12,516 nt of DNA from positions 1 to 12,516 of IMG/VR virus record IMGVR_UViG_2537561727_000005; one strand, written 5' to 3'. The position numbers and the translations under genes were made by a program. The stretch is from a virus. Lineage: Duplodnaviria; Heunggongvirae; Uroviricota; Caudoviricetes. Positions within the stretch are counted from its first letter, which is position 1; each line of letters begins with the position of its first letter. Shown piece after piece: positions 4,369 through 10,784 of this stretch. Below the pieces are notes generated by a model that did not search any database, was not told the DNA's origin, and was given only the letters and a program-made list of their open reading frames with translations.

Positions 4369-4370
4369 AA

Positions 4371-4832
4371 GCAGCAGAGAAGAAACGACGACGAGAGGAG
4401 CAGAAACAGAAAGATAAACTTAAGATTCGAAAACTCGCCTTAAAGCCCCGCAGTTACTGGATTAAACAAGCCCAACAAGCCGTAAACGCCTTCATCAGAG
4501 AAAGAGACCGCGACTTACCATGTATCTCGTGCGGAACGCTCACGTCTGCTCAGTGGGATGCCGGACATTACCGGACAACTGCTGCGGCACCTCAACTCCG
4601 ATTTGATGAACGCAATATTCACAAGCAATGCGTGGTGTGCAACCAGCACAAAAGCGGAAATCTCGTTCCGTATCGCGTCGAACTGATTAGCCGCATCGGG
4701 CAGGAAGCAGTAGACGAAATCGAATCAAACCATAACCGCCATCGCTGGACTGTCGAAGAGTGCAAGGCGATCAAGGCAGAGTACCAACAGAAACTCAAAG
4801 ACCTGCGAAACAGCAGAAGTGAGGCTGCATGA
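4371..4832 (+). pseudogene. ninG: ninG C-terminal remnant, about 150 codons with no start codon; N-terminal roughly 50 codons deleted
   Basis: Frame translation [17 protein letters not shown]...[11 protein letters not shown] matches lambda NinG C-terminal portion; in-frame stop at 4368-4370. Confidence 0.85.
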
Positions 4833-5494
4833 ATATCTACGAAAGAATTGATGGCAGCAAATACCGAAATATTTGGGTAGCTGGCGACCTGCACGGATGC
4901 TACACGAACCTGATGAACAAACTGGATACGATTGGATTCGACACCAAAAAAGACCTGCTCATCTCGGTTGGCGATTTGGTTGATCGCGGTACAGAGAACG
5001 TCGAATGTCTGGAATTAATCACATTCCCCTGGTTCAGAGCTGTGCGTGGAAACCATGAGCAAATGATGATTGATGGCTTATCAGAGCGTGGAAACGTTAA
5101 TCACTGGCTGCTTAATGGCGGTGGCTGGTTCTTTAATCTCGATTACGACAAAGAGACTCTGGCTAAAGTTCTTGCCCATAAAGCAGAAGAACTTCCGTTA
5201 ATCATCGAACTGGTGAGCAAAGATAAAAAATATGTCATTTGCCACGCCGATTATCCTTGTAACGAATACGAATTTGGAAAGCCAGTTGATCCTCAGCAGG
5301 TAATCTGGAACCGCGAACGAATCGGCAACTCACAAGACGGGATCGTGAAAGAAATCAAAGGCGCGGACACGTTCATCTTTGGTCATACGCCAGCAGTGAA
5401 ACCACTCAAATTTGCCAACCAGATGTATATCGATACTGGCGCAGTGTTCTGCGGAAACCTCACATTGATTCAGGTACAGGGAGAAGGCGCATGA
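4829..5494 (+). CDS. Lambda-type Ser/Thr protein phosphatase (orf221/NinI family), intact 221 aa
   Basis: Near-identical to lambda phosphatase incl. GDLHG and GNHE metallophosphatase motifs; ATG overlaps ninG stop (ATGA). Confidence 0.95.
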
Positions 5495-5623
5495 GACTCG
5501 AAAGCGTAGCTAAATTTCATTCGCCAAAAAGCCCGATGATGAGCGACTCACTACTGGCCACAGTTTATTGGTTTTCGTAACTGAGTCATTTTATTATTTT
5601 ATTGCAACTTTTAATCTTTTATA

Positions 5624-5672
5624 GTGCGAAATAAATGGAGCTGGCATTCATTTCGCACTTTATGTTTTTGTT
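5624..5672 (+). terminator. Rho-independent terminator downstream of the phosphatase gene
   Basis: 10-bp stem AGTGCGAAAT (5624-5633) / ATTTCGCACT (5650-5659), 16-nt loop, followed by TTATGTTTTTGTT. Confidence 0.5.
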
Positions 5673-5705
5673 GGACTTATGTTATTTTGATTGAATTCAA
5701 TTCAG

Positions 5706-6665
5706 TTAAAAAAAGAAGGTGATTGCTCCATTTATAAATGAATAGTCATCCCCTGTCTTGAATTCTGATGTTACTTTATTAAATGCTAGTGTGAAGGCTA
5801 CAGGTGCATACCCAATTGTTGCGCCAACTTGATATTCATCAACAGTTTTGTTTAGCGATACTGTTGTTTGTTTCGTCTGTATTGTTTTTCCTTCGAGAGT
5901 ATAGTTGCGATTGACATCTCGTCTTTCCATACCTGCAAAAATCTTGTATTTGAATCCGCTTGTATCGGACATATGCATTAAACCACGGGGAGCCAGCAGA
6001 CCAAAGCCATTATCCGAATTGAAGGTTTTATCATTACCAATGGCAATGGTTGCGCCATATGCTACATATTGAAATAAGTTTCCAGTAACAGCAGAAACTT
6101 CAGGGTATAATCCAACATTAGCACCTAAAATATCCATACTTGGTGTCATGGATAGCATCCCTTTTACAGTATAACCGTAGCGATTCTCTATTTGATCATC
6201 CCATGCATGATATTTTTCTGCCCCAATAATCTCATGAGCTTTATTTTGTACTTTCTGACCGCCTGCGTCGGGGCCAACAACACCTATGTCAGTACCTAAT
6301 CGATAGCGAATCCAGTCATTCGCAAGGGAGTTCCATTCAATACCAGTGTGAGTGTATGCACTAAAAGCTCTGTCTCCAGTTACAGCTGTGTTGTGTCTTT
6401 TATTACTGCCTGATGGAGAGTAAATATCTTGCGCAATATGGAGAGATAATTGGCTCGAGTCTGAGATATCGTGGCTATATCCCAGAAATAAGCCTTGTGA
6501 GTAATCATCTCTGTTTTCATGTTTATTGCCATAAATATCATTAAGTATTGGTTGAAACTTCCCTGCATCATCATTTGCTAATGATAATGCAAGGCTGTTC
6601 GCGATAGCTGAACACGTGGTAAATGACAGAGCAATAAAGACGCCAGCGATGACACTTTTTTTCAT
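5706..6665 (-). CDS. lpxR: Outer-membrane lipid A 3'-O-deacylase LpxR-like (319-aa precursor, 22-aa signal peptide, C-terminal aromatic beta-barrel signature ...AITFFF)
   Basis: Signal peptide with AIA cleavage motif; mature numbering places N9, D10, S34, K67, Q118 and H122 where I recall the Salmonella LpxR active-site residues; 319 aa equals Salmonella LpxR precursor length; gene is markedly AT-rich. Confidence 0.8.
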   Translation of the reverse strand: MKKSVIAGVFIALSFTTCSAIANSLALSLANDDAGKFQPILNDIYGNKHENRDDYSQGLFLGYSHDISDSSQLSLHIAQDIYSPSGSNKRHNTAVTGDRAFSAYTHTGIEWNSLANDWIRYRLGTDIGVVGPDAGGQKVQNKAHEIIGAEKYHAWDDQIENRYGYTVKGMLSMTPSMDILGANVGLYPEVSAVTGNLFQYVAYGATIAIGNDKTFNSDNGFGLLAPRGLMHMSDTSGFKYKIFAGMERRDVNRNYTLEGKTIQTKQTTVSLNKTVDEYQVGATIGYAPVAFTLAFNKVTSEFKTGDDYSFINGAITFFF

Positions 6666-7140
6666 ATGTTATTGTCTTCCTTTTTTTTGAATGGTGCGCG
6701 TATTTTACATACATGAGTTTGTAATACAAGGTGCGTAATCAATATGATGTTTTATAATTGCGTGAGACAATTGATTTATTCGTTTTTTATTGCGGTTTTT
6801 ATTATCTTTTAATGTAACAGTGTTTTTATTAAGTGTGTTTGCGTGGTGTTTTATGTTTTTTATAATTTTTATTTTATTAAATTTAAATGCATTAGTAATG
6901 GCTATTCTATATAGCAATATAAGAACTGTTACAAAAAAAGGGGGGGCAATTACAGGTAGTTATGGATGATGAGTGAAACAGATATTGGAGAACCGGGGAA
7001 TGAATGATGTCTGAGTCTTATATATCAGAACTCCTTCGCTGTCGCTGGGGGCTCCTGTGCTTATGTCGTTTCCCCGATTCGGTTTTGAACGATTACCGAA
7101 TGTTGAAGAATTATGCCAAAATATAGAAAGGATTTACTGC

Positions 7141-7830
7141 ATGAATACCCAATATTTACAGTATGTTCGTGAGCAACTTATGGCAGCTACTGCTGACTTG
7201 AACGGAGCAACGAAAGGCCAGCTCGAAGCCTGGCAGGAGCATGCACAATTTGATACTGGTACATACAAACGAAAGAAGCCGCGCATTCTGGATGTGGTAA
7301 CTGGCAAGATGATTACGCTGGATAATACGCCGACTTCCGGTAAGCAGTCGTACGCAAAAGGTTCATCCATTGCTTTGGTCAGCCCGGTTGAATTCTCAAC
7401 CTCTTCATGGCGCCGCGCGGTTTTGTCTCTCGATGAACATCAGAAAGCATGGTTGCTTTGGTGTTACAGCGAAAGCGTTCGATGGGGGCATCAGGTCACC
7501 ATAACGCAATGGGCATGGAGCGAGTTTAAGGATTTGTTAAGTAACAGAAAAATTGCAGGTAAGACACTGGATCGCCTGAAGACGTTAATCTGGCTGGCTG
7601 CACAGGATGTGAAGAGCGAACTTGCAGGGCGTGAGGCCTATGAATACCAGACACTGGCATCATTGGTGGGAGTGACAACAAAAAACTGGTCCGAGACATT
7701 TACTGAACGCTGGGTTGCAATGAAGCACATTTTTCTACAGCTTGATAGTGATGCTTTATTGCTTGTGACGAGAACACGTTCAAAACAAAAGGCAGCATTT
7801 TTACAGCAAAATATTGCAAAACTGGATTAA
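7141..7830 (+). CDS. Late-gene regulator at the Q position (putative Q-like antiterminator), 229 aa from ATG 7141
   Basis: Track ORF 7057-7830 starts at GTG; ATG 7141 has AAGGA 8 nt upstream; function inferred only from synteny (between nin region and lysis genes), I do not recognise the sequence. Confidence 0.5.
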   Translation: MNTQYLQYVREQLMAATADLNGATKGQLEAWQEHAQFDTGTYKRKKPRILDVVTGKMITLDNTPTSGKQSYAKGSSIALVSPVEFSTSSWRRAVLSLDEHQKAWLLWCYSESVRWGHQVTITQWAWSEFKDLLSNRKIAGKTLDRLKTLIWLAAQDVKSELAGREAYEYQTLASLVGVTTKNWSETFTERWVAMKHIFLQLDSDALLLVTRTRSKQKAAFLQQNIAKLD

Positions 7831-7875
7831 AAGCCATATACTTCATGCAAATTTGGTATGTTGTAAAAAATGTAT

Positions 7876-7902
7876 AAACCCGCTGCCGAGTGGGTTTTTT
7901 TT
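7876..7902 (+). terminator. Terminator-like hairpin 46 bp downstream of the Q-position gene (possible tR'-like element)
   Basis: AAACCC (7876-7881) / GGGTTT (7892-7897), 10-nt loop, followed by T-run to 7902. Confidence 0.4.
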
Positions 7903-8041
7903 ATGCCCCGAGTTGTACTTGTACGGTAAACATGCTGGCTGCTATGTAATAGAGTTTTTTTAGCCTGTAACCTCTTGACTGCATTGAATTGCTTTTGTTA
8001 TGAGTTGTAAGCCAATGTTATCATCTTGTATTGGGGTGGTT

Positions 8042-8758
8042 ATGAAGGATGGTGCGCTGCTCAGGAGTTCTTCACTTTTTATTGCCTACATGGGATGCCT
8101 TGGATGGGGGAGTGCTTATTTCTATGGATGGGGTACTTCTTTTTACTACGGCTTCCCATGGTGGATTGTAGGTGCAGGTGTTGATGATGTTGCCAGAAGT
8201 TTATTTTTTGCAGTTATCGTCATTGCTATATTTCTTATCGGTTGGGGTATTGGTGTTGTATTCTTTTTCGCAGTGAAAAGAAAACATTCTATGCAAGAGC
8301 TAAATGTATTTCGCCTTTATTTTGCTGTGGAATTATTGTTTGTGCCGGCAATTATTGAGTTTTCTATATTGAGACAAAAGATTCAGGTACCTCTTTTGCT
8401 ACTGTCAGCAGCGATTGCGCTGGCGGTTACAATTTCGATAAGATCTTATGGGCGATTTTTATCGGTATCATGCTTCTATGATAAGCCATTTATAAAAAAA
8501 CATTTTTTTGAGATTGTGATGATTGCTTTTGTGGCATATTTCTGGCTTTTTTCATTTCTGACAGGATATTACAAACCACAGTTTAAGAAAGAATATGAAA
8601 TGATTAATTATAATGATGGTTGGTATTATGTTCTTGCTCGTTATGATAATTGTCTGGTTTTGTCTACTTCTTTCAATGCAGGTAGTAAAAGGTTTGTCAT
8701 TTATCAATCAGCACAAGATAAGAATCTTCAGGTTGATATTGTAAGGACCAGAATTTAA
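8042..8758 (+). CDS. Polytopic inner-membrane protein of unknown function (238 aa from ATG 8042; about 5 hydrophobic helices rich in Trp/Tyr/Phe, roughly 70-aa soluble C-terminal domain)
   Basis: Long ORF with GGGGTGG upstream of ATG 8042; strongly AT-rich relative to flanking phage genes; hydrophobic segments read from translation. Confidence 0.75.
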   Translation: MKDGALLRSSSLFIAYMGCLGWGSAYFYGWGTSFYYGFPWWIVGAGVDDVARSLFFAVIVIAIFLIGWGIGVVFFFAVKRKHSMQELNVFRLYFAVELLFVPAIIEFSILRQKIQVPLLLLSAAIALAVTISIRSYGRFLSVSCFYDKPFIKKHFFEIVMIAFVAYFWLFSFLTGYYKPQFKKEYEMINYNDGWYYVLARYDNCLVLSTSFNAGSKRFVIYQSAQDKNLQVDIVRTRI

Positions 8759-9137
8759 TTGGCTGCATAAATAATATTTTAAGTTGCAAGTTGGCTATTC
8801 GTAGGAATAGAACCTTAGGCATGCTGAATGCGTTTCCTGAACATTGTTTTATAAACTGTGTCTGCTTGCTGTTGTGATCCTGCTTTTAGTGATGGTGATG
8901 ATGGATTTCACCAGCAGGATAATGTTGGTACTGACTGATGGCGCTCTGGTCTGCGGCATTGTGGTATTGCTGTGGCCGATGATGAAAGAACAGAATGAAT
9001 AATTCTTGACTTTTTTGTTTACTGTTTATTAAAAAATCAACCGCATGGTGAATCCTCCTTGGAGGGGCTAAATGATCGAGTTTTAAGGGCACGTAGCGAG
9101 TTCTGTTTGATCATTGCAGAACTTAGCGGGAGGCGCC

Positions 9138-9248
9138 ATGCGTACATCACTAATGTTATTTCCTTCTATCATTTTCCTTGTGAGTTCTGGCTGCGCATGG
9201 CGCGGCCTTTTTTTTATGACCTGCCACTGGCAGATGGTCATCCTGTGA
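9138..9248 (+). CDS. Candidate small hydrophobic peptide (36 aa, MRTSLMLFPSIIFLVSSGCAWRGLFFMTCHWQMVIL)
   Basis: ATG with GGGAGG Shine-Dalgarno 4 nt upstream; single predicted TM segment; not in ORF track (below 60 aa). Confidence 0.3.
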   Translation: MRTSLMLFPSIIFLVSSGCAWRGLFFMTCHWQMVIL

Positions 9249-9391: not shown

Positions 9392-9444
9392 ATAATAAAA
9401 AAGAGCCAGCGCAGAAGAGAACGGGTAAAAGAGTCTGCGCTGGC
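9392..9444 (-). terminator. Strong rho-independent terminator (minus strand)
   Basis: Perfect 11-bp GC-rich stem GCCAGCGCAGA (9405-9415) / TCTGCGCTGGC (9434-9444), then U-tract TCTTTTTTATTAT (complement of 9392-9404). Confidence 0.75.
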
Positions 9445-9489
9445 GTGGGGATATTCCCCGTGGAGAAATGATATGTAACACACATCGGG
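9392..9489 (-). ncRNA. Candidate small RNA of about 98 nt with its own promoter and intrinsic terminator
   Basis: Minus-strand promoter TTGACA (9523-9518), 16-bp spacer, TATAGA (9501-9496); no credible ORF between predicted start (about 9489) and terminator; internal stem-loop GGGGA-ATA-TCCCC. Confidence 0.4.
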
Positions 9490-9623: not shown

Positions 9624-9839
9624 ATGTACCAGATGGAAAAAATAACAACAGGTGTGTCATACACCACGTCAGCGGTGGGGACGGGATACTGGCTACTGCA
9701 GTTGCTGGACAAAGTCTCCCCATCCCAGTGGGTGGCAATAGGCGTATTGGGTAGCTTGGTGTTTGGCTTGCTGACGTATCTGACAAACCTTTATTTCAAG
9801 ATTAAAGAAGATAAGCGTAAGGCTGCGAGAGGTGAATAA
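9624..9839 (+). CDS. S: Class II holin of the phage-21 S type (pinholin), 71 aa, with dual-start motif M-Y-Q-M (holin/antiholin)
   Basis: Close match to my memory of S21/EssD (…[51 protein letters not shown]); GGAGACGGGG upstream of ATG 9624; track ORF extends to GTG 9579, which lies inside the upstream terminator. Confidence 0.9.
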
Positions 9840-10117
9840 TGTCGCCATCATTACGCAAGGCTGTTGCTGCTGCTATTGGTGGTGGGGCTGTTGCCATAGC
9901 GTCTGTGCTCATCACTGGTCCGAGTGGTGACGATGGCCTGGAAGGTGTCAGCTACATACCATACGAAGATATCGTTGGCGTATGGACTGTATGTCACGGA
10001 CACACCGGAAAAGACATCATTCCCGGTAAAACGTATACCGAAGCAGAATGCAAAGCCCTCCTGAATAAAGACCTTGCCACGGTCGCCAGACAAATAAACC
10101 CGTACATCAACGTCGAT
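9839..10117 (+). pseudogene. R: SAR endolysin (phage-21 R type lysozyme) N-terminal fragment, about 93 codons, C-terminal half deleted
   Basis: N-terminal SAR segment ([20 protein letters not shown]) and catalytic Glu/Asp/Thr region match R21 from memory; homology stops at ...NPYINVDI where terminase A sequence begins. Confidence 0.85.
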
Positions 10118-10418
10118 ATATCGAACAGTCAGGTTAACAGGCTGCGGCATTTTGTCCGCGCCGGGCTTCGCTCACTGTTCAGGCCGGAGCCACAGACCGC
10201 CGTTGAATGGGCGGATGCTAATTACTATCTCCCGAAAGAATCCGCATACCAGGAAGGGCGCTGGGAAACACTGCCCTTTCAGCGGGCCATCATGAATGCG
10301 ATGGGCAGCGACTACATCCGTGAGGTGAATGTGGTGAAGTCTGCCCGTGTCGGTTATTCCAAAATGCTGCTGGGTGTTTATGCCTACTTTATAGAGCACA
10401 AGCAGCGCAACACCCTTA
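10118..10418 (+). pseudogene. A: Terminase large subunit gpA N-terminal fragment (codons about 3-100), fused in frame to the endolysin fragment
   Basis: [100 protein letters not shown] matches lambda gpA N-terminus. Confidence 0.9.
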
Positions 10419-10784
10419 TTCCAGGTTGTCCTGGGGGCTGCCGCCATTGCCGGATCATTCTTTACCGCCGGAGCCACCCTTGCAGCATGGGGGGCAGCCA
10501 TTGGGGCCGGTGGTATGACCGGCATCCTGTTTTCTCTCGGTGCCAGTATGGTACTTGGTGGTGTGGCGCAGATGCTGGCACCGAAAGCCAGAACTCCCCG
10601 TACACAGACAACGGATAACGGCAAACAAAACACGTATTTCTCCTCACTGGATAACATGGTTGCCCAGGGCAATGTTCTGCCCGTTCTGTACGGTGAAATG
10701 CGCGTGGGGTCGCGGGTGGTATCTCAGGAAATCAGCACGGCAGACGAAGGGGACGGTGGTCAGGTTGTGGTGATTGGTCGCTGA
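10419..10784 (+). pseudogene. I: Tail assembly protein gpI C-terminal fragment (about 120 codons), out of frame with the preceding gpA fragment
   Basis: [48 protein letters not shown]...GQVVVIGR matches lambda gpI C-terminus; stop at 10782-10784. Confidence 0.9.

Follow-up and report, generated by a model that had tools for sequence, protein, structure and literature searches.

The moron concept reportedly goes back to Hendrix and Juhala, with bor and lom of lambda as its lambdoid examples. The lipid A 3'-O-deacylase LpxR of Salmonella Typhimurium is said to have been studied by Reynolds in 2006 and by Rutten in 2009.

The LpxR of Escherichia coli O157:H7 was described by Ogawa et al. in 2018 (Cell Microbiol 20:e12806), a study taken here as it is cited in PMC6393859, PMC6863877, PMC9263587 and PMC7649339. 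As cited, this protein is an active, Ca2+-dependent 3'-O-deacylase that removes the 3'-acyloxyacyl group of outer-membrane lipid A, lowering TLR4-dependent signalling and phagocytosis. Transcription of lpxR requires Pch and Ler and tracks that of the LEE, and a clean lpxR deletion with the nle genes intact results in a fitness or immune-evasion defect. The activity and regulation data come from O157:H7 Sakai, not from the strain of the DNA studied here, and the protein is identical. PMC4699771 names Z0955 as the EDL933 homologue of LpxR, co-regulated with the LEE, and transcriptome papers place lpxR within the LEE/Ler modulon of EHEC. Other sources report a strong association of lpxR with LEE-positive strains (PMC6724679), propose LpxR as vaccine antigen MC001 (PMC6863877) and, in the case of a 2026 preprint, use LpxR and Q as conserved neighbours of PasD sRNA genes. 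Regarding the prophage, PMC2669165 describes Sp3 as devoid of CI and Cro and unable to circularise, replicate or package.

The segment investigated here is very probably the lpxR cargo cassette of a CP-933K/Sp3-type lambdoid prophage inserted at att-lambda (ybhC-ybhB) in LEE-positive E. coli. Its lpxR is a known EHEC/EPEC gene in a known prophage, and the biochemistry, the regulation and the annotation in phage 434 were already published.

The lpxR gene and the limits of its cassette

In the window, which is the whole stretch of 12,516 nt analysed here, one minus-strand ORF (5706..6665) is predicted to encode a lipid A 3'-O-deacylase of 319 aa, composed of a 22-aa signal peptide and a 297-aa, 12-stranded outer-membrane beta-barrel. 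This ORF matches the Pfam family PF09982 (LpxR) with E=7e-40 and 137.4 bits (cut-off 26), spanning profile positions 2-320 of 323. The sole relative of the product in the PDB is Salmonella LpxR, 3FID (chain 3FID_A, E=3.6e-153, query residues 24-319 against chain residues 2-296, ~75% identity). The active-site and Ca2+ residues given in PMC6863877 (Asn9, Asp10, Thr/Ser34, Gln118, His122 and Glu128) are present in six out of six cases, as N31, D32, S56, Q140, H144 and E150 of the precursor, which correspond to N9, D10, S34, Q118, H122 and E128 of the mature protein. By eye, the export signal can be recognized in the N-terminal MKKSVIAGVFIALSFTTCSAIA, which ends in A-I-A and occupies the 22 residues before mature residue 1, and the C-terminus, ...ITFFF, fits outer-membrane targeting. 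The protein corresponds to accession WP_000750155.1 and is identical in an O157:H7 genome. Judging from these matches, the opposite-strand ORF should be read as LpxR without reasonable doubt. The original prediction had called it so, with the active-site residues at their expected mature positions, and was right on both counts. It had also proposed an alignment with the Salmonella protein as a check. Both proteins have the same 319 aa and are ~75% identical over the mature part, N9, D10, Q118, H122 and E128 being identical, with Ser at position 34 where Salmonella has Thr; the flanking DNA is unrelated.

The gene is contained in a cassette of 1432 bp (5563..6994) with 35.7% GC, to which lambdoid phages without lpxR show no homology. 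To its left, on the plus strand, there are a 3' fragment of ninG (4371..4832; PGAP on 100%-identical genomes, Pfam NinG at 4632-4832) and an intact ninI (4829..5494), a Ser/Thr phosphatase of the lambda Nin221 type (Pfam Metallophos, E=6e-16) that is ~96% identical to that of lambda. They are followed by a 24-codon remnant of the 5' end of a lambda-type Q (5491..5562, plus), recognized by its translation and by the phage 434 and PGAP annotations. The overlap between the ATG of this remnant and the ninI stop is exactly that of lambda, whose ninI (43224-43889) runs directly into Q (43886-). In the phage 434 record, the counterpart of 5491-5562 is labelled an N-terminal fragment of lambda Q, and PGAP calls it an incomplete antitermination protein. 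Lambda homology stops at 5561, and the remnant is the scar that recombination left on this side of the cassette.

On the right side, homology of the phage 82 type resumes at 6995, within the final codons of rus and 9 nt 5' of ylcG, and homology at this same position is also found to many rusA-ylcG phages. The 40-codon ylcG (7004..7126, plus; from annotation and phage 82-type homology) is the orf45 of phage 82, whose gene order is rus-orf45-Q. Next comes an intact antiterminator Q of the phage 82 type, with 229 aa (7141..7830, plus; Pfam Phage_antiter_Q, E=2e-91, and annotations). Its start is most likely the ATG at 7141, because, in the version starting with GTG at 7057, the Pfam Q domain does not begin until residue 32 and because PGAP and the phage 434 record use the MNT... 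start. The GTG, which had been proposed before, lies 84 nt too early and would make the gene run through ylcG. A scan for promoters and terminators picked out, at 7814..7897 (plus), a candidate promoter resembling pR' (TTGCAA-17-TATACT), together with a strong terminator at 7876-7897, as the substrate for Q; the phage 434 record marks a terminator at the place corresponding to 7876-7897.

The cassette connects a nin end of the lambda type with a Q module of the phage 82 type and is no clean insertion between the neighbours of one phage. From 163 phage records matching 5495-7200, only two cover the cassette, both of phage 434. As for composition, lpxR has 39.4% GC, its 3' flank 28% and its 5' flank 29%, compared with 45.6% for both ninI and ylcG-Q and 46% for the window. 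Several elements of the original prediction agree with these data: the AT-rich character (35.7-36% GC for the cassette), the orientation of lpxR against the plus-strand ninI and Q, and the direct succession of ninI and Q in lambda. The AT-rich intergenic flanks that it described do have low GC, but the part at 5495-5562 is the Q remnant, which it missed. Similarly, lpxR does have an upstream region of its own, which had been drawn as 6666-7056; however, this region, the divergent region between lpxR and ylcG-Q (6666..7003; 338 nt, 29% GC), ends at 7003, and ylcG had been overlooked.

A hairpin followed by a T-run (5623..5673, plus) was detected by folding and as an inverted repeat 47 nt beyond the lpxR stop codon on the lpxR strand. 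Its stem (5623-5659) has 14-15 bp with one mismatch and closes a 7-nt loop, the folding energy being -16.4 kcal/mol (z=-3.0) on the plus strand and -19.1 kcal/mol (z=-6.7) on the minus strand. Directly after the hairpin, the plus strand reads TTTATGTTTTTGTT, the context of the T-run being UUUAUGUUUUUGUU. On the lpxR strand, the sequence past the hairpin is CUAUAAAAGAUUAAAAG, A-rich and with no U-run. The structure is shaped like an intrinsic terminator acting on rightward transcription of the phage; it does not look like a canonical terminator of lpxR, which has no recognizable intrinsic terminator of its own. A simple promoter/terminator scan did not detect 5623-5673, since the stem has an interior mismatch, but folding bears out the phage-strand terminator that had been placed at 5624-5672. 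In 56 related loci, the stems are invariant and all three variable positions are in the loop. With ~1.7 stem changes expected and 0 seen, the difference is not statistically significant and is only suggestive.

The locus resembles lambdoid morons in being an extra gene of deviant composition that is placed between conserved phage genes, is probably transcribed independently of the phage programme and would confer a host-interaction trait on the lysogen. Unlike typical morons, lpxR is at the junction of two module types (lambda ninI-Q' and phage 82 rus'-ylcG-Q), and the terminator-like hairpin faces the phage strand, not that of the moron. The moron reading holds in this form, as foreign-composition lpxR cargo on the opposite strand at the ninI/Q position of an immunity-deleted lambdoid prophage.

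Prophage decay and distribution of the cassette

The left part of the window contains a deletion junction near 4371, where a truncated bet, on the opposite strand, abuts the truncated ninG, and the homology with O157:H7 breaks at 4370/4371. N, cI, cro, pL, pR, O and P are missing from the prophage, in line with the earlier claim that N and the early promoters were deleted. The window ends inside a tail-tip gene; int, xis and the nle genes fall outside it and were read from genomes matching at 100%. Two of these, E. coli FORC 064 and STECUZB006, carry the element at the attachment site of lambda, flanked by ybhC and ybhB-bioA. There, int and xis are present, while kil, cIII, N, the immunity region, O, P, ren and ninB-F are gone and most head and tail genes were deleted. 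The right end of the element contains intact nleB2, nleC, nleH1-1 and nleD. Integration at att-lambda, int/xis and the nleB2-nleC-nleH1-nleD cargo were seen in the 100%-matching genomes and in O157:H7. We take the element to be CP-933K/Sp3 on the basis of its gene content and of O-island 36, not of a direct alignment with Sakai or EDL933.

In O157:H7 (Z0955, CP-933K/Sp3), the LpxR protein is identical, the cassette is at least 99% identical, and the same att-lambda prophage is found, with the nle genes, the Q stub, ylcG and Q. The O157:H7 strain F3113 keeps bet, gam, kil, P, ren and ninB-G, with cIII and the O-type replication gene as pseudogenes. Compared with F3113, the window has lost everything between bet' and 'ninG and more of its lysis and head region. 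Phage 434 (OL657226.1) is 99.4% identical to the window over ninG-ninI-Q'-lpxR-ylcG-Q, hairpin included, and its lpxR is annotated as 'outer membrane beta-barrel lipid A deacylase'. This phage is complete, with immunity, replication and late regions, whereas the window represents a relic without them. As phage 434 carries the identical module, lpxR is therefore not limited to relics.

Among 5426 complete E. coli genomes, the cassette was found in 621, nearly always in single copy and in 619 of them with at least 99% identity; the whole ninG-to-Q module, at a coverage of at least 80%, occurs in 430 genomes. In IMG/VR, 23 of 54 prophage contigs show homology only from ~5480 rightward. In the one of these 23 that was inspected (L025), the left neighbours are ninH and a different replication module. 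The lambda-Q stub is kept in both left-hand contexts, and since the same stub is present in every context, the comparison argues for a single origin of the cassette, in one founding event probably followed by shuffling via homologous flanks.

The lpxR gene is intact in 52 of 55 copies and disrupted in the other three. It is under purifying selection, with a dN/dS of 0.14-0.20 and all catalytic residues kept when diverged E. coli copies are compared. A scan of genome contigs with the single protein returned one relative, in Citrobacter sp. (73%). A diverged lpxR also adjoins tail-fibre genes in other viral contigs (L058/L059). Neither homology to the cassette nor an equivalent hairpin was found in the flanks of the Citrobacter and L058 copies. 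Together with the phage 434 module, the L058 and L059 copies suggest repeated capture of lpxR by phages.

The upstream region and its homopolymer tract

No part of the module varies more than the region 6666-7003, for which 55 loci yielded 32 sequence variants, mostly through homopolymer indels. The scan for promoters and terminators gave nothing above chance in 5300-8100, sigma-70-like matches in 6666-7003 being no commoner than in shuffled sequence. On the minus strand, a lone weak promoter-like match (6932-6904) is also not above chance. Comparison of loci revealed an A7G7 homopolymer pair (6933..6946) whose length varies between strains (G6-G8 and A6-A8). Its alleles by locus are A7G7 (27), A7G6 (17), A7G8 (5), A6G6 (4) and A8G6 (1), with A7G6 in phage 434 and A7G7 in the window. 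Using a 91-nt probe for the tract, we found that 192 of 619 copies in complete genomes differ from the window. The differing matches are 90, 92 or 93 nt long among the matches listed, and lengths of 90, 91 and 92 nt are all found within O157:H7. Variation in tract length was seen among otherwise at least 99% identical copies. The A7G6-8 variation could be the product of real slippage or of homopolymer assembly errors.

Two further candidates in this region were discarded. A plus-strand promoter with A7G7 in its spacer would have poor hexamers and a spacer of ~22 nt, and a hydrophobic ORF of 59 codons across the tract (6790-6969, plus) is most likely an artefact of T-rich DNA. RNA-based control was also considered. 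The lpxR gene of Salmonella is reported to be under MicF control. When the 33 nt of the MicF 5' end were paired with lpxR positions -95..+166 in RNAduplex, the energy was -13.3 kcal/mol, against -11.8 +/- 2.7 for shuffled controls, 75 of 300 of which did as well. A 9-nt match, AAUGAUGAU, at +92 of lpxR has no statistical support. A search of 5495-7056 with Rfam found no RNA family.

It is very doubtful that the A7G7 tract is a contingency element, prone to slippage, by which expression of lpxR is adjusted or switched, and with it lipid A acylation and immune visibility. A related speculation is that de-silencing of this shared region by Ler and Pch might turn on ylcG-Q as well. Were this so, the LEE regulon would be linked, without prophage induction, to read-through from pR' that depends on Q. 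Such read-through would reach the remaining late-region cargo (PasD-like sRNA and nle genes).

Function of the cassette and meaning for the pathogen

As LEE-regulated cargo, lpxR would be transcribed leftward from its own promoter in 6666-7003, independently of the phage programme. Independent expression is implied by the published control by Ler and Pch, which operates in a prophage without pR. The region itself, with 29% GC, would be DNA of the type that H-NS silences and that Ler and Pch de-silence. The hairpin and T-run at 5623-5673 may stop rightward transcription that would otherwise run antisense into lpxR. According to the literature on the identical O157:H7 protein, LpxR would then strip the 3'-acyloxyacyl group, with its two fatty acids, from lipid A, with less TLR4-dependent inflammatory signalling and phagocytosis as the result. 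We suggest that the cassette arose once and spread among lambdoid phages, including the viable 434, and prophages by recombination in the conserved flanks.

It was claimed initially that the element looks retained for lpxR rather than as a phage. This is an incomplete account: in the closest genomes, four T3SS effector genes (nleB2, nleC, nleH1-1 and nleD) are in the same relic, and the identical module is present in phage 434. Those four effector genes could explain the retention, leaving lpxR as a neutral hitch-hiker that contributes nothing itself, either preserved by selection on its neighbours or simply not yet deleted, and the three disrupted copies go in the same direction. We regard this as extremely unlikely, considering the low dN/dS with all catalytic residues kept, the maintenance of the cassette in two phage backbones and in the viable phage 434, and the mutant phenotypes published for O157:H7, at least as the citing papers report them. 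It is also unlikely that the cassette mainly serves the phage, with deacylation of lysogen lipid A excluding other phages or altering adsorption or vesiculation, and with the benefit for the pathogen being secondary. The identical module in the apparently complete phage 434 and the diverged lpxR next to tail-fibre genes in L058/L059, which suggests repeated phage capture, speak for a phage benefit. However, the strong tie of lpxR to LEE-positive pathotypes and its co-regulation with the LEE point to host interaction, and the phage of the window is dead.

Another idea of the original prediction concerns the antiterminator gene, which would be silenced here by the plus-strand terminator at 5623-5673 blocking read-through from upstream. 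On the plus strand, upstream of ylcG-Q, the hairpin and T-run do look like an intrinsic terminator. Nevertheless, pR, pL and N were deleted, and what is upstream is a promoterless ninG fragment abutting the truncated bet of the opposite strand, so there is no known read-through for the hairpin to block and the idea of Q being cut off is moot here. In addition, phage 434 has the same hairpin yet must express Q. We therefore consider silencing of Q by this terminator improbable and keep the reading of the segment as the lpxR cargo cassette of a CP-933K/Sp3-type prophage.

The analysis adds anatomical detail to this cassette and no new kind of system. The details are its exact limits, the lambda-Q stub, whose sharing as a scar indicates that the cassette originated once, the presence of the same cassette in two phage backbones, the polymorphic homopolymer tract 5' of lpxR, and a progressive, lineage-specific decay of the prophage around intact cargo. 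That cargo includes a gene whose product, by 3'-O-deacylation of lipid A, reduces TLR4 activation and aids colonisation by EHEC and EPEC, and which is a marker of LEE-positive lineages and a proposed vaccine antigen.

The lpxR cassette in a second backbone and in other mobile elements

The same lpxR cassette is carried by a second phage backbone. In 23 of the 54 IMG/VR contigs, homology to the window begins only at about 5480. The one contig examined among these 23 (L025, 7172-12957) has ninG-ninI replaced by a ninH/replication set to the left of the cassette, where genes for ninH, a DUF1364-like protein, an HNH/AP2-type protein, a NinB-like protein and a primase-helicase replication module are found. 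Other mobile elements have acquired the gene too. Two viral contigs not from E. coli (L058 and L059) contain an lpxR with 71% identity at 835-1794, adjoining IS3 fragments plus tail-fibre and tail-fibre-assembly genes. An E. coli plasmid of 101 kb (L062, 5001-5960) has another copy, with 81% nucleotide identity, in an IS-rich region with an M91 (NleD-like) peptidase gene nearby.

Homopolymer runs at and upstream of lpxR

The lpxR start is bordered on both sides by homopolymer runs (6654-6690; A8-GGAAG-...-ATG-A7 in the sense of the minus strand), with the A8 run directly 5' of the Shine-Dalgarno sequence and the A7 run immediately 3' of the ATG. The former is A7 in 4 of the 54 loci, and the latter is A6 in one viral contig (L054), which results in a frameshift of lpxR at codon 4. 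Further upstream, an A7G7 pair (6933-6946) differs in length between near-identical copies, being found with G6, G7 or G8 among the 54 loci. With a 91-nt probe over this tract, 192 of 619 copies in complete genomes were unlike the window, the differing matches being 90, 92 or 93 nt long among the matches listed; within O157:H7, lengths of 90, 91 and 92 are all seen in complete genomes. Either the tract is prone to slippage or the variation comes from assembly error.

Membrane protein gene and matches to structured RNAs downstream of Q

Immediately 3' of the pR'-like promoter/terminator (7814-7897), a plus-strand gene (8000-8758) encodes a multi-pass membrane protein of 252 aa, for which a Pfam profile search returned no match. 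Phage 434 also has this gene, annotated as "putative membrane protein", and a DUF3927 gene comes next. An STnc100-like structured RNA was found at 9013-9218 on the plus strand, with E=2e-5 and a score of 37.7 bits that falls short of the gathering threshold (47); on the minus strand, 9395-9484 gives a weak match to Esr41 (32 bits). The former is probably a pasD-type gene, since PasD sRNAs are described as structural relatives of STnc100, located less than 10 kb from LpxR and Q and often with Esr41 nearby (2026 preprint).

Decay of the prophage

All the head genes and most of the tail genes are deleted in the window. In the region of 9839-10618 and 10515-10784 (both plus strand), a chimeric ORF (Pfam Phage_lysozyme plus GpA_ATPase) runs in frame from phage lysozyme sequence, of which the N-terminal part is kept, into a fragment of gpA, the large subunit of the terminase. 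Directly after this ORF come the C-terminal portion of tail assembly protein I and then a tail-tip gene. The deletion endpoints in this region differ between the window and the closest genomes. Another deletion, at 4370/4371, has joined the interior of bet (minus strand) to that of ninG (plus strand). The O157:H7 element has a deletion at the same locus, but a smaller one, and therefore the decay of the prophage is independent in different lineages, with lpxR, Q and the nle effector genes left intact.
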